Positions 3,044 through 33,848 of a stretch of 41,184 bases of DNA are shown one piece after another (positions within the stretch are counted from its first letter, which is position 1; each line of letters opens with the position of its first letter). The notes below the pieces were generated by a model. The model made no database searches and had not been told where the DNA came from. It was given only the letters and a program-made list of their open reading frames with translations. The stretch comes from a virus (taxonomy: Duplodnaviria > Heunggongvirae > Uroviricota > Caudoviricetes): the IMG/VR virus record IMGVR_UViG_3300045988_018086, positions 1 through 41,184 of that record, one strand, 5' to 3'. Made by a program: the position numbers and the translations under genes.

Positions 3044-3080
3044 GCTAGTATAGGACAAATCCTAAACACGAGGAATAAGC

Positions 3081-11268: not shown

Positions 11269-11290
11269 GTTTCCCCTTTCTCGATAAGTA

Positions 11291-11320: not shown

Positions 11321-11375
11321 TCATTTAAACATAGAAACGGCGTAATCTCAGTAAACCAGTTACTTTTTACACAAG

Positions 11376-11525: not shown

Positions 11526-11582
11526 AATAGTTTATTCCAACATTTACAATTGAGTGGAATAACTGGAATAATCACAGGCACT

Positions 11583-11607
11583 AAAAAGCCCCTTTCGGGG
11601 CTTCAGT
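11583..11607 (-). terminator. Intrinsic terminator (AGCCCC-TTTC-GGGGCT plus T5) after the Ig-like protein gene
   Basis: Stem and U-run on minus strand. Confidence 0.55.
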
Positions 11608-13112: not shown

Positions 13113-13156
13113 GTGCCCTCCTGTAGTATCACCAGTGTAACGCATAAAAATAATAT

Positions 13157-13185
13157 TTGCAGACACCAATATAATAGGGTACTAT
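13157..13185 (+). promoter_or_regulatory. Promoter TTGCAG-N17-TACTAT with AATAG-N4-CTATT operator, near-identical to 2793..2821
   Basis: Identical 24-nt core CCAATATAATAGGGTACTATTCA; 27 nt upstream of ATG 13213. Confidence 0.5.
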
Positions 13186-13212
13186 TCATTTAACTTAAAC
13201 AGGAGATGCAAA

Positions 13213-13734: not shown

Positions 13735-13738
13735 AACT

Positions 13739-13760
13739 AAGGCCCCATTGCGGGGCCTTT
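13739..13760. terminator. Bidirectional terminator hairpin (AAGGCCCC-ATTG-CGGGGCCTT)
   Basis: GC stem with T-runs on both strands between convergent genes. Confidence 0.55.
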
Positions 13761-13764
13761 TTCT

Positions 13765-17272: not shown

Positions 17273-17431
17273 TCATTTGAAGAAACCATCCTTGACAAGC
17301 TGACGGTATAGGTTAGCTGCGTAACGCTCTGCCTGGCCTTTGCGCCGAAATATTTTCCCATTAACTGAATACTTATTTAACTCTGGCTCGTACCAAACTT
17401 GGTTGTCGATGAACTCCAGAATACTAATCAT
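17273..17431 (-). CDS. Small protein (52 aa), ATGA-coupled to upstream gene
   Basis: AGAGGAGAG RBS; start overlaps stop of 17428..17688; under 60 aa so absent from track. Confidence 0.3.
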   Translation of the reverse strand: MISILEFIDNQVWYEPELNKYSVNGKIFRRKGQAERYAANLYRQLVKDGFFK

Positions 17432-17688
17432 TCCCCGCTCTCCTCTTTAGCAATACGTTGCTCAGTTTTAGTGATACCCCGGCGCGTGAATAACACCGGG
17501 CTTGTCTTAACGTGCGTCATCAGACGGTTGTTATAAATTACATGGCGCTCGCAGTTAACGTCTTTGCTGTACTTGGCAATCGTCATTTCGTTGATGCCGG
17601 TTTGTCGGCATGTCTCAGCCATCGTGCCGTATTCTTTAATCAGGTTTGGAATGCTGGTAATCATCCTAAGAAATTCCTCGTTGTCCAC
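17428..17688 (-). CDS. Small HTH-like DNA-binding protein (candidate regulator); start may be the ATG 8 codons in
   Basis: Segment GTMAETCRQTGINEMTIAKYSKD resembles a helix-turn-helix. Confidence 0.35.
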   Translation of the reverse strand: MDNEEFLRMITSIPNLIKEYGTMAETCRQTGINEMTIAKYSKDVNCERHVIYNNRLMTHVKTSPVLFTRRGITKTEQRIAKEESGE

Positions 17689-17833
17689 ATCGCATTCGGA
17701 TATTTGTTATCGCGGTCCTGCACTACGGCAACCATGTTACCGCGTTGCACCAGGCAAAAGTGCCGTTGTTGCTCGCCGTTGTAACGACGCCAGATTGCCT
17801 CTTCGATTGCTGCGTTGATGTCACTGAACATAT
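17663..17833 (-). CDS. Small hypothetical protein (56 aa)
   Basis: ATG with GGGGTG RBS; stop overlaps next start. Confidence 0.3.
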
Positions 17834-18016
17834 TCACCCCACTATCTCATCACCGAGCCACGCCGTTTCTCGTATATCGTCGACCACACAAGCGGCGTGC
17901 TCACGGCTAATTGCAAAAATGTAGAAGCTGAACTTCTTCCCGTCGGCGTCGATGTGGTTAACCGAGTAGGGTTTCCACAGGACACCATCAATTACTACTG
18001 GTTTAGGCGACTCCAT
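17834..18016 (-). CDS. Hypothetical protein (60 aa)
   Basis: ORF in early/middle minus operon with coupled start/stop. Confidence 0.35.
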   Translation of the reverse strand: MESPKPVVIDGVLWKPYSVNHIDADGKKFSFYIFAISREHAACVVDDIRETAWLGDEIVG

Positions 18017-18260
18017 ACGCTTTACCGCATTTTAAGCATGTGGCTCGATGCACCCCATCAACTAAATGCAGGCGGTAATCATGCTCGCAGGCGTTCATCT
18101 TTTCCTCTTCTCCTCTCAACAACATGAGAAGAACCTTAAATGCGGCTAACTGGTACTCACCGTTAATTGACAGTTGCCCGCCTAACGTCTGTTTCTCCGA
18201 CTCAAGCACCAGAATACGGCGCTCGAGCGATGCGATTGTGATTTTAGGCATTGGTGTCAC
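18003..18260 (-). CDS. Small protein with coiled-coil and C-terminal zinc-ribbon-like Cys/His cluster
   Basis: CEHD...CLKCG motif. Confidence 0.35.
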   Translation of the reverse strand: MTPMPKITIASLERRILVLESEKQTLGGQLSINGEYQLAAFKVLLMLLRGEEEKMNACEHDYRLHLVDGVHRATCLKCGKAYGVA

Positions 18261-18429
18261 CTTTGTTCAGGTTGAAGCGGTTAATCAGTTCACGGCGTGT
18301 CTCGTATAGCGACTCAACCATTTGCTCGGCTACCGCGATTTTAGTATTCAGGACGTACATCACGTGCCCTATGTCTACGCCGCCGTCAACGGCCTCTACC
18401 ATCATCTTTTCATATTCGCGGTCAGTCAT
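18244..18429 (-). CDS. Hypothetical protein (start likely ATG 18429)
   Basis: ATGA overlap with upstream small ORF. Confidence 0.35.
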   Translation of the reverse strand: MTDREYEKMMVEAVDGGVDIGHVMYVLNTKIAVAEQMVESLYETRRELINRFNLNKGDTNA

Positions 18430-18581
18430 TTCTTCTCTCCCCACATGCGATTGAGATACTTGTTCTTGTCCGGCCCATGGAAACTGTTACGTTTCATCAG
18501 TTCCTCGCGTGTCGGGAACGGAGTGTGACTTACTTTACGACCTACGCGTAACGGTTGGCTTATCTGACCTTGTTCGCTCAT
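18426..18581 (-). CDS. Small hypothetical protein (51 aa)
   Basis: AGGAGAG RBS, ATGA coupling at both ends. Confidence 0.3.
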   Translation of the reverse strand: MSEQGQISQPLRVGRKVSHTPFPTREELMKRNSFHGPDKNKYLNRMWGEKK

Positions 18582-18727
18582 TTCTTCTCTCCTGCATAAG
18601 CTGCTTTCAGTGTCTGCATCGCGGCGAACCAGAACGCGTCCGCAGGAATGCTGTTGCTCAGGTTACTAACGGCGATGCGTGCCATCAGTTGCGCATCTTT
18701 GAATGCTTCGGTATCTGTGATTTTCAT
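18578..18727 (-). CDS. Small hypothetical protein (49 aa)
   Basis: GGAG RBS, ATGA coupling with downstream ORF; first gene after promoter at ~18789. Confidence 0.3.
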   Translation of the reverse strand: MKITDTEAFKDAQLMARIAVSNLSNSIPADAFWFAAMQTLKAAYAGEKK

Positions 18728-18760: not shown

Positions 18761-18789
18761 AATATAATTGGTGTGAGAGTAATAGTCAA
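18761..18789 (-). promoter_or_regulatory. Sigma70-like promoter TTGACT-N17-TATATT on minus strand
   Basis: Hexamers with 17-nt spacing, just downstream of terminator 18818..18842. Confidence 0.45.
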
Positions 18790-18817
18790 CTAGTCATTGC
18801 GGAAGATAGATAAAAAA

Positions 18818-20643: not shown

Positions 20644-20861
20644 TTCTCCTGTTTACCAAGTCGCTTAGGTGAGCAGATAGCGCGTACCTCTGAATCGATG
20701 GGCTTGTCACCCTGAAACAGGAAGTGTGCGTTCTCTGCGGCGCGTGCCGCGGACTGGCACGCCTCCGTCGAATAAAACGTTTCCGATGCCGCTAGTTGCA
20801 TCTGGCCCGCCGACAGTACCCAGATAAATAAGATGCTGGTCATCAGAAGTATTCCCCGCAC
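20640..20861 (-). CDS. Small secreted/periplasmic protein with predicted signal peptide
   Basis: N-terminal hydrophobic signal-like segment LLMTSILFIWVLSA followed by ~50-aa Cys-containing domain. Confidence 0.4.
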   Translation of the reverse strand: MRGILLMTSILFIWVLSAGQMQLAASETFYSTEACQSAARAAENAHFLFQGDKPIDSEVRAICSPKRLGKQEK

Positions 20862-21388
20862 GTTTTACATACTTTCGTACCGAACGGCGCGGAGCCATCT
20901 GTTATTACATAATAGAAACTGTGTTTGCACTCCCGTGTACAGGCTGTTGGCCCATACTCAAGTCCGTCCCACTCACGCTTGCCGCATTCGCAGCAAAACC
21001 GGCTACCGGGCACGTTGTCCTTGTGGCCTTCGGCAATAAACAATCCTGGAGCGATAATCCAATTGTGGTCACATTCCTGCGTATCTTCTTTTCGGCAACC
21101 AGATTGCTCCGAACCGTACGCACCTTTGCGGATAAGTTTGTAGGCCTCCACGTCACCAGTAGCCTCGACCAATGCCAGATGCAACTCCTTAACTTGCCCT
21201 GTCAGGTGCGATATGTGCTCAGATTTCTTAATGTTGTCTTCCCGCAACTCCTTAATCTGCGCCGACGCATCACGTAACTGATTCTTAAGTGACTGCACCT
21301 CATGCGCCAGGTCTTCGCTCCGGCTGTTATTTACCTGCTGCCGTAGCTGGTCGATCAGGTACTCGAATATTTCGTTTTTGTTACTCAT
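20843..21388 (-). CDS. Coiled-coil protein with C-terminal Cys-rich zinc-binding-like domain (start likely ATG 21388)
   Basis: Heptad-rich N-terminus; multiple CxxC pairs at C-terminus. Confidence 0.4.
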   Translation of the reverse strand: MSNKNEIFEYLIDQLRQQVNNSRSEDLAHEVQSLKNQLRDASAQIKELREDNIKKSEHISHLTGQVKELHLALVEATGDVEAYKLIRKGAYGSEQSGCRKEDTQECDHNWIIAPGLFIAEGHKDNVPGSRFCCECGKREWDGLEYGPTACTRECKHSFYYVITDGSAPFGTKVCKTCGEYF

Positions 21389-21518
21389 CAGCTTCACCCC
21401 TTTTCGCATCCACCCCGACTAGCAGCGATTTAGTGTCGCCGTCACACACCGAAGTGCTACTAATTATTTCGTAAGCGTCTACCAGTTCGCCTAAAGTCCA
21501 GCTACCGTACCAGCCCAT
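21381..21518 (-). CDS. Small hypothetical protein (45 aa)
   Basis: Strong RBS GAGAGGAGAG; first ORF after promoter at ~21577. Confidence 0.3.
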   Translation of the reverse strand: MGWYGSWTLGELVDAYEIISSTSVCDGDTKSLLVGVDAKRGEADE

Positions 21519-21548
21519 CTCTGTCTCTCCTCTCGCTTGTGTAAATGA

Positions 21549-21577
21549 ATAGTAGCCTATTCTATCTTAGTGTGCAA
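21549..21577 (-). promoter_or_regulatory. Promoter TTGCAC-N17-TACTAT with AATAG-N4-CTATT operator (minus strand)
   Basis: Same architecture as the promoters at 2793, 13157 and 22843. Confidence 0.45.
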
Positions 21578-22808: not shown

Positions 22809-22842
22809 AACCCTCACTCCTCTGTCTCGTCCCGATAAGTGA

Positions 22843-22871
22843 ATAGTATCCTATTATGTTGGGGCGTGCAA
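22843..22871 (-). promoter_or_regulatory. Early promoter TTGCAC-N17-TACTAT with AATAG-N4-CTATT operator (minus strand)
   Basis: Hexamers, spacing and operator shared with 2793, 13157 and 21549 promoters. Confidence 0.5.
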
Positions 22872-23040
22872 GAGATTAGTTACGTTGCCGTTGTGATTCT
22901 TTCGTTTCTTAAAGGAGTACGCAACGCAGTGGGTGGGCGTTAGCCCACCCCAGCGGAGTGAAGTACTCTCTACCTCACTCACTCACGGCAACTATAGAAA
23001 CTTTTAATTATCAGTGACTTGGGTATTTAGGCGGGATTAA

Positions 23041-23190
23041 CAATAGACTTTGGCCCTTCCGAAAGCGCCAGCGGAACTACACTCAAGTGCCTAATGGCAC
23101 GCGTTGCGTTCCCTGCCGCTCCGCGGTCGCTTGCGATATCTCACAAGCTCAGTGAAGCTTAGCATATTTTTAAGTAAAAGTCAATACTAG
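23041..23190 (-). promoter_or_regulatory. Copy B of the ~145-bp conserved element: promoter TTGACT-N17-TGcTAAGCT (approx 23184 to 23156, minus strand) plus conserved leader
   Basis: Homologous to 11376..11525 with identical promoter hexamers. Confidence 0.5.
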
Positions 23191-23231
23191 TAGCATCTTT
23201 TGTATCTTAGTAACTTTGTGTGGTGTTTTGG

Positions 23232-23260
23232 TTGCTTTTACAAAGTTACCGCCTTATACT
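23232..23260 (+). promoter_or_regulatory. Plus-strand early promoter TTGCTT-N17-TATACT
   Basis: Hexamers 30 nt upstream of ATG 23290 with AGGAG RBS between. Confidence 0.45.
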
Positions 23261-23289
23261 TCGGTACATCTTACATAGGAGAACGTGAA

Positions 23290-23460
23290 ATGACTATCAA
23301 TGAAGTAGCTGAACGTATTGGGGTGACACGTCAGACAATTAATAACTGGATTAAGAGTGGAAAGTTTCCTGATTGCAGCGTTAAAGTAATGGGTCGCCGG
23401 ATGCCGGGGACATTTGACCGTAATAAAGTTGAAGCGTGGATTAAGGAGAATGTGAAATGA
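23290..23460 (+). CDS. AlpA/MerR-like HTH DNA-binding protein (start at internal ATG; track start 23200 is an alternative start codon)
   Basis: INEVAERIGVTRQTINNWIKSG helix-turn-helix; AGGAG RBS. Confidence 0.5.
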   Translation: MTINEVAERIGVTRQTINNWIKSGKFPDCSVKVMGRRMPGTFDRNKVEAWIKENVK

Positions 23461-23747
23461 AAGGTGTAATTTTCCACGATAAAGAAAATGACAGTGCTTA
23501 TATGGTTTATTTAGTGCAAGGCGAGTACGCGTTATGCTTTAACGTTTCTTGTAAACTGGACTCTTATTCACCGTTTTGCGTTACAGAAGAATTGCAGTTG
23601 ATTAGTCTCCGAAGACTCAGCACAATGTCGGCTTCCATCGATGTCTCTGACCACTTAGCGTACGTTTGTCAGTATTTCGGTGATGAGATTGTTGTAGATT
23701 ATTATCGTAAGTACGCGCATTTGATGGAATGTCTGGCTAATAGATAA
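23457..23747 (+). CDS. Hypothetical protein
   Basis: ORF with ATGA overlap to upstream gene. Confidence 0.4.
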   Translation: MKGVIFHDKENDSAYMVYLVQGEYALCFNVSCKLDSYSPFCVTEELQLISLRRLSTMSASIDVSDHLAYVCQYFGDEIVVDYYRKYAHLMECLANR

Positions 23748-23804
23748 AAGAAAGCCCCAGCGTTAGAGCGCCGAGGCCAAATTACTTGCTGAAGGAAATA
23801 TAAC

Positions 23805-26090
23805 ATGTCCGATGTAATTTTATCCTACTCGTGGTCGCGTCGCAACGCGCGGGCTGAGAAAAAGGATATAAACGTCAGAACCACACACACGGCAACACTG
23901 GACGACCTGAAAGAGTTAATCCAGCCACTCGATGCTGTCCGTGACGGAATTAACCCGAAGACCGCGCCCGGTTATATCACCGCCGCGTGCGACTCGACGC
24001 ACAGCACTGTAAAAGACCCGGAAACCGGCGACTTTAAGCAAGCGCGTAAAGGCTTTTTCTATCGCTGTGACGCGTCTGTAAGCAAATCGTCGCTGGCGTA
24101 TCTGGACTTCGACAGCGCAACACCAGAAGAGTATCAGGAAGCGGTGCGCTTAGTTAAACGCAGCCGCCGGGGCATGTGTATCTATACCACGGCATCACAT
24201 ACCGACGAGTCCCCGCGCTTTCGCGTCGTCATGCCGCTGGCCCGTCCGGTTGAAGGTGGTGACATTATCCGTGTTCGTCACGGCTTGCTCGAGCACTTCT
24301 TCAAAGGCATGGGTGCTGACCGCAGCGGGTTCACTCTGTCACAGCCGATGTATCTGCCGCCGGTTGGCGCTACTGTTATCTGGTCGCGTCGCAACGACCT
24401 GATTGACCCGGACGAGTTACTGGAAGGCATCCCCGCCGTTGACGTTAGCAGCGCATCGGATTACCAGATACCGAAAGAACTGCGAACAGCGTTTACCGAT
24501 GCGTTTGAAGCACTGGCGTTCGAGTACGGCGGTATTATGACCCCGCGCGGCCTTAAGATGCCCGCTACGCCGGAACACGCCGAGAACTACAGCGACCCGA
24601 CACCGCGCCCGGATGACTTCCTGCTGTGCTTCCCGCGCGAGGGATATGAAGCGCCTAACGTAACCATGATTCACGACACCGACATTACGGCGACCGAGGG
24701 CATGTCATCGAAAGAGGTGTGGAAGTATGCGTGCGATGCAACCGGGCTGCCGTTCAGTGAAGTCGCAGAGGCCATCGGTTGGGGTGCACGTGAATCTGTT
24801 TCTTGCAGCCTGGACGACCTTGAAGACGACGAGGACTCAGAGGAGGACGAGTTACCGGAACCGGTAAAGGCTGATTTCGTCGTTGAAGGGTACATGCCGT
24901 CGGATTGCATATGGGATATCGTCGGGGAGTCCGGTACGTATAAATCCTTCTATACGCTGGGGATGATGTACCTGAGCGCCGCCGGATACCGGTTTGCGGG
25001 TGCTGACACCCAGCGTTGCCACCATTTCTATATCGACGGTGAAGGCGGCGCAGCTACCCGCACCCGTATCGATGCGCTCGCGGCTAAATATGGCGAGGAA
25101 GGTAAAGATTATGTACATGTTATAGACATGGGTGAAATACTCGGTATGCGAGAGGATAAAAAACTTACAGCACTCATCCGTATGATGCGTGAAACAGCAG
25201 GAGAGGAACCGATCGGTATGATTGCGTTCGATACCCTCAACCAGACGCTGGCCCTGACGATTGATAAGTTTGATGAGAACAGTTCATCAACTGCAATCGG
25301 CATGGGTAAAGTCATCGCTATCCTTAAAAAAGTGCGTGACGCGACTAAAGCTGCGGTAGGCGTTGTACACCATACACCGAAGGGCGGAAAGAAAGCCCGA
25401 GGTAGTGGTGCGCTGTACGCTGGCGTCGATGTGGAGCTGACAATCGAACGCGCGACAGACCGTCAGATAAATGTATACCACTCTAAATTTAAGCATGGGC
25501 CGCAACAGAAGACGGTTGGTATGGTGCTTGAGTCGGTACAGTTCCGCGAAGCCCCGCCACCGAAAGAATACCGCGCGGTTGAGTTCCTCGGTAGCACGGA
25601 GGAATACGGCACAATCGTAAACCTCGACCTGCCTGAGCCGCACAAAGCGCTTGTGCTTATGCCGTGGGGCTTCGAACCGTTCAAGACCGACGAGGAGAAA
25701 GAGCGGGAAGAAGGACTGACTAAGGAAGGTAAAGAAAACGTACGTAGAACCATGGAGAACGCCGTCAACAGTTCGGAAGCCACGATACTGGCGGCGTTTG
25801 AACTGGCGGAAGGAACCTACAACGGCAACGAAGGTATCACGGTAGCCGCGGCAAATAAGCTCGCACAGTCTGACCCCAACGCGAAGGCGTTCAACTCCAA
25901 AGAAGTCATAGAACGCGGAAAGATTAAGAAAATGGTTGAGGCGGGGTATCTTGTACCTGGTACGGACGAAAACAATCAGATAATCCCGGGCCGTTACAGA
26001 TTGAATACCCGAATAACGGACAACAAGATTCCGAAGACAATATACGAACCGAATGAAATGCTGACAGTGACAGAGGGGGATTTGGAATAG
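23805..26090 (+). CDS. Bifunctional primase-helicase: N-terminal archaeo-eukaryotic-type primase (Prim-Pol) fused to RecA-like (AAA_25/DnaB-like) ATPase
   Basis: AEP motifs LDFD (DxD) and TASHTD (sxH); Walker A GESGTYKS, Walker B-like MIAFD, HHTPKGG. Confidence 0.7.
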   Translation: MSDVILSYSWSRRNARAEKKDINVRTTHTATLDDLKELIQPLDAVRDGINPKTAPGYITAACDSTHSTVKDPETGDFKQARKGFFYRCDASVSKSSLAYLDFDSATPEEYQEAVRLVKRSRRGMCIYTTASHTDESPRFRVVMPLARPVEGGDIIRVRHGLLEHFFKGMGADRSGFTLSQPMYLPPVGATVIWSRRNDLIDPDELLEGIPAVDVSSASDYQIPKELRTAFTDAFEALAFEYGGIMTPRGLKMPATPEHAENYSDPTPRPDDFLLCFPREGYEAPNVTMIHDTDITATEGMSSKEVWKYACDATGLPFSEVAEAIGWGARESVSCSLDDLEDDEDSEEDELPEPVKADFVVEGYMPSDCIWDIVGESGTYKSFYTLGMMYLSAAGYRFAGADTQRCHHFYIDGEGGAATRTRIDALAAKYGEEGKDYVHVIDMGEILGMREDKKLTALIRMMRETAGEEPIGMIAFDTLNQTLALTIDKFDENSSSTAIGMGKVIAILKKVRDATKAAVGVVHHTPKGGKKARGSGALYAGVDVELTIERATDRQINVYHSKFKHGPQQKTVGMVLESVQFREAPPPKEYRAVEFLGSTEEYGTIVNLDLPEPHKALVLMPWGFEPFKTDEEKEREEGLTKEGKENVRRTMENAVNSSEATILAAFELAEGTYNGNEGITVAAANKLAQSDPNAKAFNSKEVIERGKIKKMVEAGYLVPGTDENNQIIPGRYRLNTRITDNKIPKTIYEPNEMLTVTEGDLE

Positions 26091-26099
26091 GTAAAAATA

Positions 26100-26117
26100 A
26101 AGGGGCGTTAAGCCCCT
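26100..26117 (-). terminator. Terminator hairpin (AAGGGGC-GTTA-GCCCCTT) with U-run on minus strand
   Basis: Stem plus TTTATTTTT on minus strand at the 3' end of the HTH gene. Confidence 0.45.
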
Positions 26118-26323
26118 TCACCCAACGCCAGCCACTTGGCGTCTACTTGCAGCACTTCCGCCAGTTTAAACAGCGTCGCTGGGCGGACGTCCTGAGTTAC
26201 CCCAAGTGCCAGCTGGTTAATCGCGCCCTGGGAAACGCCAGCCAGAACAGCCAGACGGCGCTGTGAGATGCCGAGTTCTTTACGGCGTTGTTCTACACGG
26301 ATGCCTAGTTCAGATGGTTGCAT
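26108..26323 (-). CDS. XRE-family (Cro/CI-type) HTH transcriptional regulator
   Basis: LGISQRRLAVLAGVSQGAINQLALG helix-turn-helix; strong TAAGGAG RBS; divergent from operator-containing promoters. Confidence 0.7.
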   Translation of the reverse strand: MQPSELGIRVEQRRKELGISQRRLAVLAGVSQGAINQLALGVTQDVRPATLFKLAEVLQVDAKWLALGEGA

Positions 26324-26353
26324 GTCAATTACTCCTTAGTCAGTTGATATGTG

Positions 26354-26367
26354 AATAGTACCATATT
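26354..26367. promoter_or_regulatory. Operator-like site AATAG-TACC-ATATT in the regulator's own upstream region
   Basis: Near-copy of the AATAG-N4-CTATT element, 30 nt upstream of the HTH gene start. Confidence 0.4.
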
Positions 26368-26387
26368 AATTATTTTAGAAAAGCCCG

Positions 26388-26416
26388 TTGACAAGTGAAT
26401 AGTTCGCTATTATAGT
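26388..26416 (+). promoter_or_regulatory. Promoter TTGACA-N17-TATAGT with AATAG-TTCG-CTATT operator in the spacer
   Basis: Consensus -35, 17-nt spacer, perfect 5-bp inverted repeat. Confidence 0.6.
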
Positions 26417-26447
26417 TAGCCCATACCAAACGAGAGGAGAATAAATA

Positions 26448-26918
26448 ATGTTAGAGAAATTCTTAGTATTACTGGAACGTTTCGTAGTTGCACATGAACT
26501 GATTGCTGCGAACAGTGCGAAACAAGTTGTCGTTGCCAAAACTGCAACAATAGAGCCTACTGTTGTGAAAGAAGTAACGAAAGAAATCCCGGTAGAAGGT
26601 GAAGACACCATTGACACTAAACCAGCAGAAGAAGAGAAGCCGAAGCGCAAGCCGCGTAAAGCTAAAGTAGAGGAGCCAACGCCAGAGCCGGAAGAAGAGA
26701 AAGAAGAAGTCGATTACCAGTCTCTGCGCGACCAGATTCAGGCTATCGACGATGCGATTAACGAAGGCCCAAGCGATGCTGCGTGCGACGATTCTGACGA
26801 ACTGCTGGAAGAGTTTACCGGTAAGAAGATGAAGATTGCAGCGATTAAAGACGAAGACCTGGCTGAGTATCTGGAGCGCCTGACGGCAATCAAGAACAAG
26901 TATTTCGAAGAAGAATAA
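26448..26918 (+). CDS. Highly acidic protein of unknown function
   Basis: 156 aa, Glu/Asp-rich with Pro/Lys linker; expressed from operator-controlled promoter. Confidence 0.45.
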   Translation: MLEKFLVLLERFVVAHELIAANSAKQVVVAKTATIEPTVVKEVTKEIPVEGEDTIDTKPAEEEKPKRKPRKAKVEEPTPEPEEEKEEVDYQSLRDQIQAIDDAINEGPSDAACDDSDELLEEFTGKKMKIAAIKDEDLAEYLERLTAIKNKYFEEE

Positions 26919-26961
26919 TTATCCCGCGGCCTTCGGGCCGCTTTAACTGAGGGTCGGAATT

Positions 26962-27234
26962 ATGATTTACCAACTCTACCGCGCCGTAGACAGGCGGGAT
27001 AGCACAGAGGCGCTATGGCTGTTACGTGCGCCGTCTGGCTCGCACCAGATGGAAGAGATGGCGTACTTAGGCAAAGTACCACGTCCTAAAGATATAGGCC
27101 GTCACGTGTCACACATTAAGCGTACGACATTCGCCAAACCTGACTTTTATGTCTTCGAGTCGATGTATGGGTGGGCGATGCACTGCGACCATAAGACACG
27201 GCATTTAATTGACCAGTGGGAGAACAGGGCATGA
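26962..27234 (+). CDS. Hypothetical protein
   Basis: ORF, stop overlaps next start (ATGA). Confidence 0.4.
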   Translation: MIYQLYRAVDRRDSTEALWLLRAPSGSHQMEEMAYLGKVPRPKDIGRHVSHIKRTTFAKPDFYVFESMYGWAMHCDHKTRHLIDQWENRA

Positions 27235-28481
27235 TTTTAAAAGAACGCGGTGGCAATAACGATGTGCACGCATTACTGTCGCCGTCTGGGGCTAAAAAGT
27301 GGCTGGCGTGCAGTGCATCACTGGCCTGTGAAAAAGATATTCCTAACACGTCAGGTAAAGCCGCGGTATTAGGCACAGCCATGCATACAATAGCCGAGGT
27401 CCATTTAAATCAGTACATCAAAGGCACTGCACTGCCGTTAGATCGTGAAGTTGGTGCTTATGTACTGGACGAGGGCAAAGGCCAGATTAAGGCGCTAATC
27501 AGTCCGATGAAAGGTGCGGTACTGATTACGGCGGACATGATTGAGCAGGTGCGCAAGTACACCGACTACTGCAAAGCGATTATCGATGTGGCGACTTACG
27601 CCAAACTCGAGATGCGTGTCAATCTTACTGAGGTGTTGCATCCGGGGTATGAAGGCGTTGAGACGTTCGGAACTGCTGACCTTGTTGCCGTCCAGGAACT
27701 GGCTAACACCGACGAGCACATGCTTATCATCGGCGACCTGAAAACTGGACGGCATCGTGTCGAAGCGAAAGAAAACAAGCAGCTTATGCTCTATGCTCTC
27801 GGTGTTTACCGCCGGCTCAAGAGACGTTATAACATAACGACTGTTCGTCTGGTCATCTTCCAGCCGTACGCGGGCGGTGCGTCGGAGTGGGACATCTCGG
27901 TTGAAGGCCTGGAACTGTTCGCTAAGTTCGCACAGAAACGGGCACTGTTAGCGCTTGATGCTTATTTCCGTGGAAAGAAGAACCTGAAAGCGTCGGACTT
28001 TAAACCGTCGGTCGATGGTTGCCAGTGGTGCCGGTTCTCTGAACAGTGTGCCGCGCGTACAAAGACGGTTAATTCTGTACTGGCGGAAGAACTTGAAGAC
28101 GACTTTGTGCTGGAACTGACGACGGAGCAACTCGTAGTTGAGTATGAGAAGTTGCCGCTGTTACGCCAGCACATCGACAAGGTTGAGAAAGCGATGACCG
28201 CCGCATTGCATTCCGGTAAGAAAGTTCCTGGGTACAAGCTGGTTGAAGGTAAGATGGGCAACCGTGCGTGGAAAGATGCCGATGCGATTGAAGTGTCACA
28301 CGGCGACATTCTCAAAAAAGAGGTATTGATGACCCCTACGGAGGCAGCAAAAGTTCTTTCGGCGGATGAGATGGCAGCGCTTGAGCCGTTTATTACCCGT
28401 AAGCCAGGCGCACCATGTGTCGCAACGGCAGACGACAAACGTCCTGAGTGGAATCAGGTTAGTGAAGAAGATTTGGAATAA
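27231..28481 (+). CDS. PD-(D/E)XK-family exonuclease (DUF2800/Cas4-RecB-like) with C-terminal Cys cluster; start at ATG 27231
   Basis: N-terminal SPSGAKKWLACSAS motif, GDLKTG...E.K core, C-terminal CQWCRFSEQC. Confidence 0.6.
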   Translation: MILKERGGNNDVHALLSPSGAKKWLACSASLACEKDIPNTSGKAAVLGTAMHTIAEVHLNQYIKGTALPLDREVGAYVLDEGKGQIKALISPMKGAVLITADMIEQVRKYTDYCKAIIDVATYAKLEMRVNLTEVLHPGYEGVETFGTADLVAVQELANTDEHMLIIGDLKTGRHRVEAKENKQLMLYALGVYRRLKRRYNITTVRLVIFQPYAGGASEWDISVEGLELFAKFAQKRALLALDAYFRGKKNLKASDFKPSVDGCQWCRFSEQCAARTKTVNSVLAEELEDDFVLELTTEQLVVEYEKLPLLRQHIDKVEKAMTAALHSGKKVPGYKLVEGKMGNRAWKDADAIEVSHGDILKKEVLMTPTEAAKVLSADEMAALEPFITRKPGAPCVATADDKRPEWNQVSEEDLE

Positions 28482-28485
28482 AGTG

Positions 28486-28514
28486 TTGACACCTGAATAG
28501 TTAGCTATTATAGT
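28486..28514 (+). promoter_or_regulatory. Promoter TTGACA-N17-TATAGT with AATAG-TTAG-CTATT operator in the spacer
   Basis: Near-identical to 26388..26416. Confidence 0.6.
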
Positions 28515-28567: not shown

Positions 28568-29194
28568 ATGGGTATTAAACTGAATCTGCGTAAAGTAAAC
28601 ACTGCATGGGTTAACGTATTCGAACGCGAAAAAGACCGTGAAAACGATGATGGCTCAATCACTAAAGGCCAGTACAGCGCGACTATCATCCTGCCGTCTG
28701 GCCACGCACAAATCGACGCGCTCTACGACACCGTTTACGCTGTGGTTGAAGAAGCGTTGGGCGCAGCTGCCGCTGAGAAGTGGATGAAGTCCAACTACGG
28801 CGAAGGTAAGCACATGGATAAATGTGCGATTAAAGACATTGCCGAGCGCGACAATCCGTTTGAAGACTTCCCGGAAGGCTTCTACTTCAAGGCGAAGGCA
28901 CAGAAACAGCCACTGATTGTAACCTCTAAAAAAGGCGAGACTCAGGTAGAACAGGACTTCAATGTAGACGGCGAACAGATTGAAGGTGAACAGGTTTACA
29001 GCGGCTGCGTCGCTAACGTAAGCGTTGAAATCTGGTTCAGCCAGAAATACAAAGTCCTCGGCGTTAACCTGCTGGCTATTAAATACGTCGGCGAAGGTAA
29101 AGCGTTCGGCGGTTCTAAAGTAGCTGCAAGTGTCGACGACCTGGAAGACGAAGAAGAAGATGAAGCACCGCGCCGAGAACGTCGTCGCCGTTAA
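28568..29194 (+). CDS. ssDNA-binding protein-like (DUF2815-type) with acidic C-terminal tail
   Basis: Acidic tail DDLEDEEEDEA; paired with upstream PD-(D/E)XK exonuclease. Confidence 0.55.
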   Translation: MGIKLNLRKVNTAWVNVFEREKDRENDDGSITKGQYSATIILPSGHAQIDALYDTVYAVVEEALGAAAAEKWMKSNYGEGKHMDKCAIKDIAERDNPFEDFPEGFYFKAKAQKQPLIVTSKKGETQVEQDFNVDGEQIEGEQVYSGCVANVSVEIWFSQKYKVLGVNLLAIKYVGEGKAFGGSKVAASVDDLEDEEEDEAPRRERRRR

Positions 29195-29213
29195 TATCTG
29201 AATTAATTTAACT

Positions 29214-29233
29214 AAGGCCCTTCATTGGGCCTT
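29214..29233 (+). terminator. Intrinsic terminator (AAGGCCC-TTCATT-GGGCCTT plus T5)
   Basis: Stem and U-run after SSB-like gene. Confidence 0.55.
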
Positions 29234-29253
29234 TTTACTAAGGGTCAAAAATA

Positions 29254-31434
29254 ATGAGTTACCTGTTCTTAGACTTTGAAACATTCTCCGAAGCCGATTT
29301 GAAGAAAGTCGGCTCCTACGCTTACGCCGAACATCCAACCACCGAAGTTCTAATCTGCACATATGCTTTTGACGACGAGCCTGTGCAGGTATGGGATTGC
29401 ACCAACGGCAGCGACATGCCGGGCGATTTGCACCGCGCGTTACGCCGTCTGGTGAAACCAAACAGCCGTATTAAGATGGTGTGGCACAACGGCTCAATGT
29501 TCGACAGGCCCATCATGAAGCACTGCTGGGGTTTTGATATTCCCGTAAGCAACACCATTGATACGATGATTTGGGCGTTTCGTCACGCGCTGCCGGGTTC
29601 ACTCGACGCATTGTGCGAAGTGCTTGGCGTGTCTGCAGACAACGCGAAAGACAAACGAGGCAAAGCGCTTATTCAGCGTTTCTCTAAACCGACGCCGAAG
29701 AACTACAAAATTCGCCGCTACACTGCTGAAACGCACCCGGATGAGTGGGCGCTGTTCATCAAGTACGCCGTTAGCGACATCACCGCGATGCGTGAAGTGT
29801 TCCATAAGTTGCCGCGTTGGGGTAACTCCGAGTTCGAAGACCGTGTACTGGAACTGGACCAGTTAATTAACGACCGCGGGTTTAAGGTCGACGTTGCGCT
29901 GGCGGAAGCCGCAATTGAAGCTGTGGAGAAACACAAGGCACAGTTACAGGAAGAAGCCCAACGTAAATACGGCGGCTCGCTTACAGGTAAGGACTTCCTG
30001 CCGATTCTGCGTGAACTGGCGCCTGCGCATCGCATCCACAACGCGCAGAAGTCTACGCTTAACGACCTGCTTGCTGACGATGATTTACCGGACGACGCCC
30101 GCACGATTATAGAAATGCGCCTCGGGGCGGCATCCACTGCGTCAACGAAATATAACCCGCTGCTGTTAGGCCGCTCGTCTGACGACCGCCGTCGCGGTTG
30201 CATCCAGTATGGTGGGGCTAAACGTACGTTACGATTTGCGGGTAAAGGCTTCCAGCCGCAGAACCTGGCGCGTGGGTACTATCACGATGATGAACTGGAT
30301 AAAGGTATTTCAGCATTACTTAAGGGCCGAGCACATCGCCGTTTTGATGTAGCCAAGCTAACGGCATCTACGGTTCGCAGCTGCATTATCCCGGAAGCCG
30401 GGTATAAGTTTGTCGTCGCCGACTACTCGAACGTTGAAGGCCGCGGTTTGGCGTGGCTGGCTGGCGAAGAAACCGCGCTTGATACGTTCCGTGCCGGGCT
30501 GGATATTTACTGCGTAACCGCAGGCAAGATGTTCGGCATGGAGCCGGATTACATTAAGAAAGAACGTAAAGACTTACGCCAGATTGGTAAGGCATGCGAA
30601 CTTGGACTTGGCTACGCGGGTGGTGTCGGCGCATTCGTACAGTTCGCCAAGAACCTCGGCCTTGACCTTGTTGATATGGCAAAAACAATGGACGGGACTT
30701 TCCCCGACCACATCTGGGCTGCTACCGCACGTGGATATGAGTGGGCGCGTATTCAGGAAGCCAAGCGACCACCACGTCCAGGTGAAAATGATGACCGACC
30801 ATCTTATATTCTTGATAAGAAAGTGTGGCGTACCTGCGACGCTATCAAGCGTATGTGGCGTGAGTCACACCCGGAAACAGTAGCTTTCTGGCGGGATATT
30901 GAAGACGCAGCTATGGCAGCTATCCGCAATCCGGGCAAAGAGTTCACCGCAGGGCCGCGGGGAGTTAAGTTTTCGCGCAACGTAGAAACGGACAACAACG
31001 GCAACAAAGTCGCCGGTTGGTGGTTGCGTATGACGTTGCCGTCTGGTCGAGTTATGTCATACCCTGGCGTCGGGTTAAGCGTGTCGAAAGAGACAGACGA
31101 AGACGGGAAGGTGTCTACCAACGTGCGCATCAAGTACCAGGGCGAAAACCAGTTAACCCGTCAGTGGGGCTTCCAGTACACCTACTCTGGTAAACTGGTG
31201 GAAAACTGCACTCAGGCGCTGTGCCGTGATTTGTTGGCTAATGCACTGCTGAACGTCGAAGCAAACGGCTACCCGATTGTGCTTCATGTTCACGATGAGA
31301 TTATCTGCGAGACACCAGATTTACCAGAATACAATGTCGCAGAACTGGAACGATTGATGTGCGAATTACCAGAGTGGGCCGAGGGGTTCCCTCTTGTAGC
31401 AGAAGGCGCGGAGATGAAGCGTTATGCCAAGTAA
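29254..31434 (+). CDS. DNA polymerase, family A, with N-terminal 3'-5' exonuclease domain
   Basis: Exo I DFET, Pol motif A DYSNVEGR, motif B RQIGKACELGLGYAGG, motif C HVHDE. Confidence 0.85.
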   Translation: MSYLFLDFETFSEADLKKVGSYAYAEHPTTEVLICTYAFDDEPVQVWDCTNGSDMPGDLHRALRRLVKPNSRIKMVWHNGSMFDRPIMKHCWGFDIPVSNTIDTMIWAFRHALPGSLDALCEVLGVSADNAKDKRGKALIQRFSKPTPKNYKIRRYTAETHPDEWALFIKYAVSDITAMREVFHKLPRWGNSEFEDRVLELDQLINDRGFKVDVALAEAAIEAVEKHKAQLQEEAQRKYGGSLTGKDFLPILRELAPAHRIHNAQKSTLNDLLADDDLPDDARTIIEMRLGAASTASTKYNPLLLGRSSDDRRRGCIQYGGAKRTLRFAGKGFQPQNLARGYYHDDELDKGISALLKGRAHRRFDVAKLTASTVRSCIIPEAGYKFVVADYSNVEGRGLAWLAGEETALDTFRAGLDIYCVTAGKMFGMEPDYIKKERKDLRQIGKACELGLGYAGGVGAFVQFAKNLGLDLVDMAKTMDGTFPDHIWAATARGYEWARIQEAKRPPRPGENDDRPSYILDKKVWRTCDAIKRMWRESHPETVAFWRDIEDAAMAAIRNPGKEFTAGPRGVKFSRNVETDNNGNKVAGWWLRMTLPSGRVMSYPGVGLSVSKETDEDGKVSTNVRIKYQGENQLTRQWGFQYTYSGKLVENCTQALCRDLLANALLNVEANGYPIVLHVHDEIICETPDLPEYNVAELERLMCELPEWAEGFPLVAEGAEMKRYAK

Positions 31435-31555
31435 ACTGATTATCGCGGTACTGGCGGGATTTGCTGCCGGTGTCTACTGTCACGAGGGTCAATACGGCAT
31501 GATGGTTGCCATATTGGGCATGTTCATCGCAATTTATCTGTGGGTGCTGGAATGA
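31424..31555 (+). CDS. Micro-ORF 1: 43-aa single-pass membrane peptide
   Basis: Hydrophobic sequence; ATG overlaps end of polymerase gene; stop overlaps next ATG (ATGA). Confidence 0.35.
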   Translation: MPSKLIIAVLAGFAAGVYCHEGQYGMMVAILGMFIAIYLWVLE

Positions 31556-31641
31556 AAATCTACTGGTTTTATGAAGAAGACTGTCGAATCTGTCCGCGCT
31601 GCGGTATTGAACATACGAAACGGGAGGGGTGCGTACTATGA
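31552..31641 (+). CDS. Micro-ORF 2: 29-aa zinc-ribbon-like peptide (C-x2-C-x2-C-x9-C)
   Basis: ATGA coupling at both ends; four Cys. Confidence 0.3.
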   Translation: MKIYWFYEEDCRICPRCGIEHTKREGCVL

Positions 31642-31790
31642 CAATGTTTGTATTTCGGACGATAGTAACCATGCTCGCACTGTTACTCGGGGCGGGAATA
31701 GCCGCGATGTTCTGTTACGGCCTGTTCTTTAAGTTTGCCGGTGTTGCCGTTCTAGGCGGGGCGTTTATAACTTGGGTTCTGCACTCATGA
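31638..31790 (+). CDS. Micro-ORF 3: 50-aa membrane protein
   Basis: Two hydrophobic stretches; ATGA coupling to VRR-NUC gene. Confidence 0.35.
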   Translation: MTMFVFRTIVTMLALLLGAGIAAMFCYGLFFKFAGVAVLGGAFITWVLHS

Positions 31791-32071
31791 CCCCGGAAGG
31801 CAAAATACAGAAATACGCAAAAGAGCGATTCGAGGCCATTGGTGGCCTCGTTCGTAAACTTTCCTACGAGGGGCGTTCCGGCGCTCCCGACCTGCTGGTA
31901 ATTCTCCCAGACGGCATAGTCTGGTTTGTCGAGGTGAAGAAAGACGAAAACACGAAGCCAGACCCACACCAGCTACGTGAGCATGAGCGTATGCGCAAAC
32001 GCGGCGCGAATGTTTTTGTCGTTGGTTCGTTTAAACAGGTTGACGACCTAATAGCGAGCTATTATAGTTAA
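31787..32071 (+). CDS. VRR-NUC domain nuclease (PD-(D/E)XK fold)
   Basis: PDLLVILPDG..FVEVK motif. Confidence 0.6.
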   Translation: MTPEGKIQKYAKERFEAIGGLVRKLSYEGRSGAPDLLVILPDGIVWFVEVKKDENTKPDPHQLREHERMRKRGANVFVVGSFKQVDDLIASYYS

Positions 32072-32101: not shown

Positions 32102-32293
32102 ATGAAACACGAATATGACCGCAAGCCAGCACGTGACATCGTACCTGGCGATATGATTTTCAACGTTAAGACCCGCCACCCTGTTGCCGTTGATACGGTG
32201 TACGTCGAGTCGAACGGTAAACTGGTTATCGAAGATGTAACTGGTAACGTTACGGCGTTCGGGCGTAAAGAGTTAGTTCTGGTGCTGAAATGA
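32102..32293 (+). CDS. Hypothetical protein
   Basis: ORF with ATGA overlap to helicase gene. Confidence 0.4.
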   Translation: MKHEYDRKPARDIVPGDMIFNVKTRHPVAVDTVYVESNGKLVIEDVTGNVTAFGRKELVLVLK

Positions 32294-33714
32294 GTAAGTT
32301 TCAAAGGCGCGAGTACCAGAAGCTCATGACTTCGTTCATGTTGCGGCACCATCGCTGCAACATATGGGCAAGCATGGGCGCCGGGAAGACGGGCAGTGTC
32401 CTGTGGGCTTTAAACCGACTGTTCCGCAATGGGCAACTTAATGACGACGACCGCGTGTTAATCCTCGCCCCGTTGCGTGTTGCGTCTGGCACGTGGCCCG
32501 CAGAGCAAGAGAAATGGAACTTTCCCTGTCTGAGTGTCGTTGACGCGACCGGTTCAGAGAAGCGCCGCATCGCGGCGCTGGAATCAGACGCTAACGTGGT
32601 GTGTACAAACTACGAAGTTATCGAATGGCTGATTGACTACTACGGCAAAGACGACTGGCCTTTTACCGTTATCGTCGCCGACGAAAGCACGAAGCTGAAA
32701 TCATTCCGCAGCCGTTCAGGTGGAAGCAAGAGGGCGAAGGCGCTAAGTAAAGTTGCGTTCGGTAAGGTTAAGCGTTTCATTAACCTGACTGGTACGCCGT
32801 CGCCGAACGGCCTCAAGGACTTATGGGGCCAGAACTGGTTTATCGACGCGGGTGAGCGCCTCGGTTCTTCATACACAGCATTCACCGACCGCTGGTTTAA
32901 CTCGGTACAGAAAGGCAAATCAGCGATGGCGCGTGAGTATCATGCGCGCCCTGGTGCGGATAATGAAATCCATCAGAAGATGAAGGACATTAGTCTCACG
33001 ATTGACGCCGCTGAGTGGTTCGGTTGCGAAGCGCCAATTATCGTCCCTGTTGAAATTGACCTGCCGAAGAAAGCACGTCAGGCGTACATAGATATGGAGG
33101 AAAAGTTATTCGCAGAACTGGAGAGCGGAGAAGTTGAAGCCGCTAACGCGGCGGCAAAGACGTCAAAGTGCTTGCAAATTGCTTCCGGTGCCGTGTATGT
33201 GACGGGTGACGACGGAGAAGCAACCAAAGACTGGGAGAAAGTGCACGACACGAAACTGGATGCGCTGGAGTCAATTGTTGATGAGTTACAGGGCGCGCCG
33301 TTACTGGTGGCCTATCAGTTCAAGCACGAACTGGAGCGCATCCTTAAGCGATTCCCGCAGGCGCAGGCGTTCGCCAAAGGTGCCAAGGGTAATAAGCAGA
33401 TGGAAGCGTGGAACCGTGGCGAAATCGAAATCCTATGCGTGCACCCCGCGTCAGCCGGCCATGGCTTGAATTTACAGGACGGCGGACATCATCTGGCGTT
33501 TATTTCGCAAGGCTGGAACCTTGAGCACTATTTGCAGGTTGTCGAGCGTATAGGCCCGGTGCGCCAGAAGCAGGCGGGCCACGAGCGACCAGTGTTCATC
33601 TATCACATCGTTGCTAAAGACACGCTGGACGAGGTTGTTGCCTCGCGTACTGACGAGAAGAAATCGGTCCAGGAAGAGTTGCTTAATTACATGAAGAGAC
33701 GAGGTAAGAAATGA
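32290..33714 (+). CDS. Superfamily 2 helicase (SNF2/DEAD-like)
   Basis: Motif I GAGKTG, motif II DESTKLK, motif III LTGTPSPNG, C-terminal helicase domain. Confidence 0.75.
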   Translation: MSKFQRREYQKLMTSFMLRHHRCNIWASMGAGKTGSVLWALNRLFRNGQLNDDDRVLILAPLRVASGTWPAEQEKWNFPCLSVVDATGSEKRRIAALESDANVVCTNYEVIEWLIDYYGKDDWPFTVIVADESTKLKSFRSRSGGSKRAKALSKVAFGKVKRFINLTGTPSPNGLKDLWGQNWFIDAGERLGSSYTAFTDRWFNSVQKGKSAMAREYHARPGADNEIHQKMKDISLTIDAAEWFGCEAPIIVPVEIDLPKKARQAYIDMEEKLFAELESGEVEAANAAAKTSKCLQIASGAVYVTGDDGEATKDWEKVHDTKLDALESIVDELQGAPLLVAYQFKHELERILKRFPQAQAFAKGAKGNKQMEAWNRGEIEILCVHPASAGHGLNLQDGGHHLAFISQGWNLEHYLQVVERIGPVRQKQAGHERPVFIYHIVAKDTLDEVVASRTDEKKSVQEELLNYMKRRGKK

Positions 33715-33848
33715 ACATCATGGCCCCGACTCCGGCATTGCAAAAACGTATCAAGGAACTTGAGGAGGAAGTTCTACGGCTACGGCAGCAGAGAGACGCC
33801 GCTAATGCGCAACTGGCGTTTGTACTGGAGAAGTTATCAGAAGAGTAG
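33711..33848 (+). CDS. Small coiled-coil protein (45 aa)
   Basis: ATGA overlap with helicase stop; heptad pattern. Confidence 0.3.
   Translation: MNIMAPTPALQKRIKELEEEVLRLRQQRDAANAQLAFVLEKLSEE

Follow-up and report, generated by a model that had tools for sequence, protein, structure and literature searches.

The Cro and repressor proteins of phage 434 bind as dimers to 14-bp operators of the form ACAA-N6-TTGT, and Cro, in the lambdoid phages, turns down transcription late in lytic growth. The present work deals with a palindrome of the same length, AATAG-N4-CTATT, and with a small XRE-family protein containing a helix-turn-helix (HTH) domain (hereafter XRE), both found in the IMG/VR virus record IMGVR_UViG_3300045988_018086, the whole 41,184-bp stretch of which (the window) represents the genome, complete and circularly permuted, of a Kagunavirus (Guernseyvirinae), a genus of virulent siphoviruses whose host is Escherichia coli K1. 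The earlier note on this DNA, made from the sequence alone, had proposed a Cro/CI-type repressor with a dispersed operator regulon in a phage that has no lysogeny module, and this interpretation is supported here, all of its computationally testable parts having held. Directly established below are the palindrome with its statistics, promoter contexts and conservation, together with the family and the predicted fold of the protein, and it is with a probability of about 0.7 that we consider a 434-Cro-like XRE repressor to bind the palindrome at seven promoters bearing perfect copies and to repress them, with the imperfect sites being bound at a higher concentration.

Occurrence and promoter context of the palindrome

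The exact AATAG-N4-CTATT sequence is present seven times in the window (at 2809, 13173, 21548, 22842, 26398, 28496 and 32050), where 0.01 copies would be expected by chance, and none out of 100 dinucleotide-preserving shuffles reached this number. An unbiased count of all the 5-mer palindromes with gaps of 0-8 ranked it first as well (seven copies vs 0.03 expected), the runners-up being GC-rich terminator stems found three times each. All of the sites are intergenic, share the orientation of the downstream gene and lie 14-58 bp before its start codon, within predicted promoters of the sigma-70 type. Three more copies show a single mismatch (11510, 18781 and 26354, the last of which reads AATAGTACCATATT), with the chance expectation being 0.8 for all matches having at most one mismatch. 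The earlier note had also listed seven positions, six of which are indeed exact copies; its 26354 site, already called degenerate there, is the one-mismatch copy, and the exact copy at 32050 had been overlooked, as had the conserved one-mismatch copies at 11510 and 18781.

The total set of seven perfect and three conserved imperfect sites is distributed over three registers relative to the hexamers of the predicted promoters. Class 1 promoters (2809 and 13173 on the plus strand, 21548 and 22842 on the minus strand) read TTGCAC/TTGCAG-N17-TACTAT and have the right half-site inside their -10 element, whereas in class 2 promoters (26398, 28496 and 32050, all on the plus strand), which read TTGACA/TTGACG-N17-TATAGT, the palindrome fills the spacer and its last T is the first base of the -10 element. 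The third register is that of the minus-strand predicted promoters at 11510 and 18781, where the central N4 is TTGA, which is the start of the -35 element TTGACT. If transcription is assumed to start ~7 nt downstream of the -10 element, the palindrome spans ~-19 to -6, ~-25 to -12 and ~-40 to -27 in the three registers, respectively. One palindrome being found in three registers fits an independent protein-binding site and not a part of one promoter consensus. The contexts that had been claimed before (overlap of a TACTAT -10 element or location in the spacer of a TATAGT promoter) are seen at all seven exact sites, and the regulon does encompass the two accessory units and both early operons attributed to it, but is larger, since two promoters of the late region and one more replication operon, the third, have to be added. 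Promoter-like sequences that lack the motif were noted at 23190 (minus strand), ~23241 (plus strand, in front of the HTH_17/helicase-primase operon), 18910 and 17148 (both minus strand).

Conservation in related phages

Conservation was followed in 36 Kagunavirus loci from IMG/VR (L004-L039), which had been recovered via the XRE protein and mostly represent partial genome stretches, as well as in a handful of genomes of related phages. Every one of the 36 loci carries 2-6 exact copies of the palindrome, one of which always precedes the start codon of XRE by 88-89 bp. The intergenic region in front of the XRE gene holds two sites with centres 44 bp apart, namely O1 (the perfect copy at 26398, within the promoter of the exonuclease operon) and O2 (the imperfect copy at 26354, over the -10 element of XRE's own promoter), which is what the earlier note had meant by a degenerate copy upstream of the divergently transcribed HTH gene. 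In an alignment of 36 distinct Kagunavirus versions of this region, the O1 half-sites are invariant in all 36, while the central N4 occurs in six variants, the linker between the -35 element and the palindrome varies in both sequence and length (spacers of 17 or 18 bp), and the discriminator varies too; the O2 half-sites, mismatch included, are invariant in all of the Kagunavirus loci. At the O2 position, Jerseyvirus has a TTGCAC-N17-TACTAT promoter with a degenerate left half.

Exact sites are also present in Escherichia phage P AB-2017 (six), phage SS3e (three) and Serratia phage Tsm2 (two, plus further one-mismatch copies), and Jerseyvirus FSL SP-101 has five of them, extended to TAATAG-N4-CTATTA, at orthologous promoters. 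Cornellvirus SE1 contains no exact copy, but a relaxed AWTAS-N4-STAWT pattern (W, A or T; S, C or G), derived post hoc from the SE1 sites themselves, is found there at five places vs 0.56 expected, all of them intergenic and at promoters; Cornellvirus VSiP has four such relaxed sites, some of which are clearly orthologous. The enrichment in related genomes for which the earlier note had asked is therefore seen, the motif being kept in Kagunavirus, Jerseyvirus and Tsm2 and, in a relaxed form, in Cornellvirus.

Considering the individual operators, that at 28496 has orthologous sites in P AB-2017, Jerseyvirus and Tsm2, that at 32050 in P AB-2017 (40763) and Jerseyvirus (25671), and that at 2809 in P AB-2017 (12385), Jerseyvirus (13810) and SS3e (39868), while the one at 22842 is kept in the Kagunavirus loci and Jerseyvirus (35472). 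P AB-2017 (21043) and Jerseyvirus (4236) have the imperfect 11510 site unchanged, and the 18781 site is kept in P AB-2017 (27825), with Jerseyvirus and SS3e carrying a single mismatch in the opposite half (AATAG-TTGA-CTAGT). The gene following the 13173 site encodes a 173-aa product (phrog_3007, labelled “RusA-like”, with weak DNA polymerase III beta-clamp-like matches); P AB-2017 is devoid of this gene and keeps a remnant promoter at 22671, with a terminator immediately after it.

Some of the IMG/VR loci have extra exact copies without a counterpart in the window (e.g., at 14662 and 14831 in L004 and at 14567 and 14726 in L033), the context of which is GGTGTAACAGGTCAATAGGTTACTATTT...GACTTACGCTGCTACACAGCAG. 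A perfect 12-bp arrangement of everted half-sites, CTATT-CG-AATAG (11511..11522), is located directly upstream of the -35 element of the late RNA promoter (centred near -42), is kept in P AB-2017 and Jerseyvirus, and overlaps the imperfect 11510 operator, to which it might add a third half-site. Two further genomes were considered and rejected: a contig with an XRE protein 39% identical to that of the window (L040), regarded as a covariation case, proved to be unrelated, GC-rich and without an enriched palindrome, and SS3e, regarded as a genome with a divergent XRE, has a Jersey-type protein with an N-terminal sequence problem.

The XRE protein as the candidate binder

The 71-aa XRE protein matches Pfam HTH_3 (PF01381) over residues 11-65 (E-value of 1.2e-12; 48.1 bits vs a cutoff of 23), and its best sequence match in the PDB is 434 Cro (1zug, also 71 aa; matched along its whole length, with residues 6-68 aligned, ~40% identity, E-value of 1.8e-6), followed by the DNA-binding domain of the 434 repressor, HipB and P22 c2. 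Its AlphaFold model (predicted local distance difference test score, pLDDT, of 79) comprises five helices (residues 5-17, 21-28, 32-39, 48-57 and 62-66), and a Foldseek search with this model retrieved the 434 repressor (1pra), 434 Cro (2cro) and SinR (3qq6) with a probability of 1.00 and template modelling (TM) scores of 0.71-0.76, as well as the controller proteins C.AhdI and C.BclI with TM scores of about 0.7. The protein consists of a single domain, the 71-aa open reading frame (ORF) containing no C-terminal S24 peptidase or oligomerisation domain, so that, of the two types named by the earlier note, it is the Cro type that was borne out. Its PHROG label is “transcriptional repressor”, and its relatives are labelled “transcriptional repressor”, “CRO” or “DicA” in GenBank; nothing but close homologs of the Kagunavirus type came out of a search for homologous proteins. 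The glutamine at the start of the recognition helix of the 434 proteins is kept as Gln32 in the sequence alignment, which can be taken as a lead only.

The XRE gene is monocistronic and is situated between its own promoter and a hairpin shared with the convergent helicase-primase gene. No adjacent co-transcribed toxin gene, as found with antitoxins of the HigA/HipB type, accompanies it, and HipB and HigA are mere fold or sequence neighbours. Likewise, no restriction endonuclease or methyltransferase genes that would point to a controller protein were found in the window, whether close to the locus or elsewhere. With regard to a lambdoid immunity region, no further HTH_3 protein that could be the CI partner was found among the small ORFs of the window, and in place of three tandem operators the intergenic region has one perfect and one imperfect site.

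Describing XRE as the only obvious cognate binder, as the earlier note did, was not accurate, since the window also encodes a 56-aa HTH_17 protein (Pfam HTH_17, E-value of 4e-9; annotated as “excisionase and transcriptional regulator” in its PHROG and in relatives) and a protein with a weak NinH-like match, while 27 further ORFs, small or unassigned, yielded no other DNA-binding domain. Cornellvirus SE1 and VSiP and Serratia phage Tsm2 are informative in this regard: all three keep an XRE homolog (39-42% identical and moved to the head of the helicase-primase operon), no HTH_17 homolog was found in SE1 (tblastn with E-values of up to 10; Pfam on the early ORFs) or in VSiP and Tsm2 (tblastn with E-values of up to 1), and the 14-mer nevertheless persists at orthologous promoters (exact in Tsm2, relaxed in Cornellvirus). 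As these three lineages without HTH_17 retain both XRE and the motif, XRE is the best candidate binder, and of the proteins recognisable as DNA-binding it alone accompanies the motif in each of the lineages covered, a co-occurrence in a handful of genomes which suggests binding and is not a proof of it.

Proposed mode of action

A dimer of XRE would occupy the 14-bp palindrome, a candidate target DNA for which is AATAGTTCGCTATT, and would, in any of the three registers, exclude host RNA polymerase from the promoter. Binding to the four sites that cover a -10 element would affect two leftward small-gene operons and the two late-region accessory units, whereas binding to the three spacer sites would affect three replication operons. 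The one-mismatch sites (XRE's own promoter and the -35 elements of two late-region promoters) would be filled only at a higher concentration of the repressor. As XRE accumulates in the course of infection, early, replication and accessory promoters would be turned down first, following which XRE would limit its own synthesis, and late transcription would be trimmed at most. Such a course would correspond to the action of Cro in the lytic growth of lambdoid phages, here with neither CI nor lysogeny. A superinfecting related genome would be cross-repressed automatically, the operator being common to Kagunavirus and Jerseyvirus. Binding by XRE, repression as its effect and the order of occupancy are what we infer, and the role of such a switch might be either temporal or directed against superinfection. 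Activation from the palindrome positions is unlikely, and a MerR-type mechanism is not called for, because the spacers have the optimal 17 bp.

Alternative explanations

It might be argued that no regulator is involved at all and that the conserved block is an extended promoter consensus inherited via duplicated promoter cassettes; in each promoter class the conserved block does exceed the palindrome (e.g., TACTATTCAYTTA and CTATTATAGTT), and one half-site forms part of the -10 element in class 1. Such an explanation, however, would have to account for the same symmetric 14-mer taking up three different positions with respect to the -35 and -10 elements, for the upstream half-site being invariant within a spacer that is unconstrained in sigma-70 promoters while the neighbouring bases vary, and for the 18781-type site of Jerseyvirus, which likewise has a single mismatch, though in the opposite half, and we consider it very improbable. 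A binder other than XRE is conceivable too. Were the palindrome bound by a host factor (of E. coli or Salmonella) or by an unrecognised small phage protein, XRE would be left with a local role, e.g., in its own intergenic region, and this would agree with there being no physical tie between XRE and the distant sites, with the ~20 small phage ORFs that belong to no Pfam family, and with the motif being common to phages of E. coli, Salmonella and Serratia, hosts which have similar factors. The best site and a degenerate one do, however, flank the promoter region of XRE itself, an arrangement typical of autoregulated repressors, no DNA-binding protein other than XRE was found in all of the motif-bearing lineages, and AATAG-N4-CTATT is not known to us as the site of any enterobacterial regulator, which makes such a factor unlikely. 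The HTH_17 protein, acting as an early regulator of the same promoters, seems a still poorer prospect. It does have a DNA-binding domain and, being 77-80% identical between Kagunavirus and Jerseyvirus, matches the unchanged core motif; its ortholog in Kagunavirus vB_Eco_K1B4 (K1B4_008) is one of only four genes called “early” by RNA-seq (PMC12645636), and its own predicted promoter is free of the palindrome. Against this stand the lineages mentioned above, in which the 14-mer is present and an HTH_17 homolog is undetected, and, to our knowledge, excisionase/MerR-type HTH_17 proteins of ~56 aa are atypical binders of 14-bp two-fold symmetric operators. A model borrowed from AlpA-type antiterminators does not suit it either, as Pseudomonas aeruginosa AlpA (residues to at least 142, eight helices) is well over twice its size and binds a 6-bp element as a monomer; an AlpA/Q-like role of HTH_17, with the spacer palindrome as a loading site, was rejected on the same grounds, together with the N-terminal ring of AlpA.

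Several observations weigh against XRE as the repressor acting on these sites and have to be put next to the evidence for it. The XRE proteins of Kagunavirus and Jerseyvirus share only 49% identity, with recognition helices reading SQGAINQ and SQSLITH, respectively, yet the core half-site is the same in both, so that on conservation alone the better-conserved HTH_17 would fit the unchanged operator better. The relaxed Cornellvirus pattern has the post hoc origin given above, and the predicted class 1 TTGCAC-N17-TACTAT promoters are weak by consensus. Lastly, in the RNA-seq of vB_Eco_K1B4, where the gene identities were assigned from coordinates in the supplementary table, the XRE ortholog (gene 004; 216 nt, on the opposite strand, beside helicase-primase) is expressed and called “middle”, whereas the Imm gene, which has a perfect operator in front of it, and PolA are called “late” (PMC12645636). 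These “late” calls do not obviously fit a simple early shut-off and are weak evidence against it; the sampling, however, was coarse (5-120 min, with peaks assigned to three periods), and classes of this kind do not resolve the order in which the promoters would be shut off. A 434-Cro-like XRE repressor nevertheless seems to us the reading that the palindrome, its registers and its distribution among lineages favour.

Genome organization and accessory features

A 4-kb query around the XRE locus matched 448 phage records, with K1ind3/K1ind2 being the top ones at 95% identity. For P AB-2017, which is of equal length and differs in its permutation, almost every protein could be placed on the window, mostly at 90-100% identity. 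All of the window ORFs longer than 300 aa correspond to replication, packaging, structural/tail or accessory genes of that phage, which is annotated as virulent; none is left unaccounted for, and no integrase or other lysogeny gene was found in the window, in agreement with the absence of an integrase asserted in the earlier note. Jerseyvirus has been judged virulent on like grounds (PMC9409062). The features discussed are compiled in Table 1; transcription from the predicted promoter at the 18781 site probably continues into the terminase genes.

Table 1. Coordinates of the predicted promoters, operators, genes and other features of the window (positions are those of the whole 41,184-bp stretch; promoters and operators are predictions).
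Feature	Position	Strand	Remarks
XRE/Cro-like repressor gene	26108..26323	-	71 aa; convergent with helicase-primase operon, divergent from exonuclease operon
Hairpin	26099..26129		common to convergent helicase-primase and XRE genes; terminator-like on minus strand
O2, imperfect operator AATAT-GGTA-CTATT	26354..26367	-	over -10 TACTAT (26360..26355) of XRE gene's own promoter
O1 promoter TTGACA-N17-TATAGT	26388..26416	+	perfect operator 26398..26411 in spacer, touching -10
Genes driven by O1 promoter	26448..26918, 26962..27234, 27216..28481	+	the last is the PD-(D/E)XK exonuclease gene
Promoter TTGACA-N17-TATAGT	28486..28514	+	perfect operator 28496..28509
Genes driven by 28486 promoter	28568..29194, 29254..31434, and following	+	Enc34-type single-stranded DNA-binding protein, DNA polymerase I, then small ORFs and VRR-NUC
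Promoter TTGACG-N17-TATAGT	32040..32068	+	perfect operator 32050..32063
Genes driven by 32040 promoter	32102..32293, 32290..33714, 33711..33848	+	the second is the helicase gene
Promoter TTGCAC-N17-TACTAT	22843..22871	-	perfect operator 22842..22855 over -10; leftward small-gene operon, 22817 to ~21585
Promoter TTGCAC-N17-TACTAT	21549..21577	-	perfect operator 21548..21561 over -10
Genes driven by 21549 promoter	21381..21518, 20843..21409, and downstream	-	downstream small genes towards holin and lysozyme
Promoter TTGCAC-N17-TACTAT	2793..2822	+	perfect operator 2809..2822; Imm_superinfect (2852..3043), phosphoesterase, HAD hydrolase, ATPase (to 5247)
Promoter TTGCAG-N17-TACTAT	13157..13186	+	perfect operator 13173..13186; single accessory gene 13213..13734
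Imperfect operator ACTAG-TTGA-CTATT	18781..18794	-	centred on -35 of TTGACT-N17-TATATT (18789..18761), just downstream of terminator
Genes driven by 18781-site promoter	17273..18727	-	small-gene/NinH block from 18727 leftward
Imperfect operator AATAG-TTGA-CTTTT	11510..11523	-	centred on -35 of TTGACT-N17-(TGc)TAAGCT (11518..11490)
Transcribed from 11510-site promoter		-	structured-RNA copy B, then Rz, scaffold, capsid, tail genes
HTH_17 protein gene (rival binder)	23290..23460	+	56 aa; first gene of helicase-primase operon
NinH-like protein gene (weak match)	17428..17688	-	
Replication operons	23290..26090, 26448..28481, 28568..32071, 32102..33848	+	
Accessory unit 1	2852..5247	+	within late block; Imm_superinfect, phosphoesterase, HAD, ATPase
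Accessory unit 2	13213..13734	+	within late block; single gene
Long minus-strand block	22817 downwards, around window ends to tailspike	-	small early-type genes, holins, lysozyme, small genes including NinH-like, terminase, portal, head, tail
Endosialidase tailspike gene	33877..36831	-	end of long minus-strand block
Structured-RNA copy A	~23158 to 23045 (within 23040..23165)	-	noncoding gap upstream of early leftward promoter
Structured-RNA copy B	~11489 to 11380 (within 11376..11495)	-	after terminator-like stem; precedes Rz, scaffold, capsid, tail genes

A structured RNA of ~110 nt is encoded twice on the minus strand, within ~125-nt blocks that are 79% identical to each other, and each copy lies directly downstream of a strong extended -10 predicted promoter (TTGACT-N17-TGcTAAGCT). 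It is also present in Jerseyvirus FSL SP-101 (4264..), P AB-2017 (21028..) and ~20 IMG/VR loci. The fold deduced from 15 distinct versions (Kagunavirus, P AB-2017 and Jerseyvirus) consists of a hairpin and a long helix, with 97.3% of the cells being paired vs 32-44% when the partners were slid, 22 double-sided changes vs 0-5, and a covariation score of 0.231 vs at most 0.051; pair 38/97, for instance, is seen as CG, UA and AU. No Rfam match was obtained for the whole window at gathering thresholds or for 22850-23300 at E-values of up to 1. The put RNA of phage HK022 is similar in that it has two related copies per genome, each after a strong promoter, two stems with a short linker, and a position before long terminator-containing operons (PMC9378689), but it is ~70 nt long, as opposed to ~110 nt here, and one of the copies described here heads late structural genes and not early ones, with no sequence similarity between the two RNAs being known. 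By this analogy, the structured RNA may be a put-like antiterminator or some other leader RNA for the early-left and late operons, and, as the promoter of copy B carries an imperfect operator, it would be connected with the operator set.

The 430-bp noncoding gap between the divergent early operons (22856..23289) contains a GC hairpin (22931..22950) and several short palindromes in addition to RNA copy A, and could also harbour an origin or a packaging signal. A perfect 10-bp inverted repeat found there (GTAACTTTGT-N20-ACAAAGTTAC, 23210..23249) lies over the predicted TTGCTT-N17-TATACT promoter of the HTH_17/helicase-primase operon; considered as a second operator, it was set aside, since just 2 of 40 related loci have it in exact form.

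Two further observations concern the gene map. The central tail (J-like) protein, 36847..39319 on the minus strand, which is a single 827-aa ORF in P AB-2017, is split between two frames in the window (residues 1-357 in frame -3 and 360-827 in frame -1, with the junction near 38249/38250), which reflects either a frameshift or a sequencing error. Jerseyvirus FSL SP-101 has an operator-controlled accessory operon at 11249..13773, in which Imm comes first and an Ant-type anti-repressor gene last, and the Kagunavirus equivalent has phosphoesterase, HAD and ATPase genes in place of the latter.

Implications and comparison with known systems

No published description of this operator set or regulon was found, although a prior account is possible in the Arch Virol 2015 Jerseyvirinae paper or in the older MB78 promoter papers, and neither was a description found in the literature of how the Guernseyvirinae, relying on nothing but host RNA polymerase, time the expression of their genes. 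Of the therapeutic/biocontrol phages for E. coli K1/uropathogenic E. coli and for Salmonella, Kagunavirus and Jerseyvirus belong to those isolated most often, and Guernseyvirinae already serve as an engineering chassis (phage CM001; PMC11990801). Should the proposed repressor-operator pairing be true, it would provide a compact map of ~10 promoters and one regulator, as well as a set of naturally occurring promoter-operator variants on which phage engineering could draw. The annotation of a phage gene as a “repressor”, furthermore, need not signal a temperate lifestyle, which matters for the safety screening of therapeutic phages. A broader picture, in which one Cro-like protein would be the master transcriptional governor of the virulent Kagunavirus, Jerseyvirus, Cornellvirus and Tsm2-like phages via graded operators in three registers, with late transcription escaping because the put-like RNA that follows its promoters would render host RNA polymerase resistant to terminators, and the whole amounting to a temporal programme run by host RNA polymerase only, without a phage sigma factor, RNA polymerase or protein antiterminator, is a speculation that we find rather doubtful.

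When compared with other regulators that act from dispersed sites, the arrangement resembles what is generally known of P1 C1, the mycobacteriophage L5 gp71 stoperators and the phiC31 inverted repeats, where one repressor with scattered operators governs many operons; those repressors, however, serve to maintain lysogeny, are larger or come from different protein families, and mostly act on asymmetric sites, whereas a minimal Cro-type domain in a phage without lysogeny genes is dealt with here. The controller proteins of restriction-modification systems, C.AhdI and C.BclI, share the fold and the size, being small XRE dimers on promoter palindromes, as well as autoregulation and the use of graded affinity for timing or delay, but they both activate and repress, and do so at one or two promoters of a restriction-modification operon, while no such genes are present here and the sites are located on ~10 promoters. 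It is 434 Cro that seems the closest: the likeness extends to the 71-aa single-domain HTH_3 protein with a five-helix fold (predicted in our case), to 14-bp two-fold symmetric operators over core promoter elements, and to a repressor gene that diverges from a rightward replication operon, the region between them holding two sites. The differences are that there is no CI partner, tripartite OR/OL, integrase or bistable switch here, the phage being virulent, that the half-site is AATAG and not ACAA, and that single operators are dispersed over ~10 promoters instead of being clustered. The system is thus most likely a Cro-type repressor-operator regulon without a CI partner, which would be expected biology and not a surprising one.

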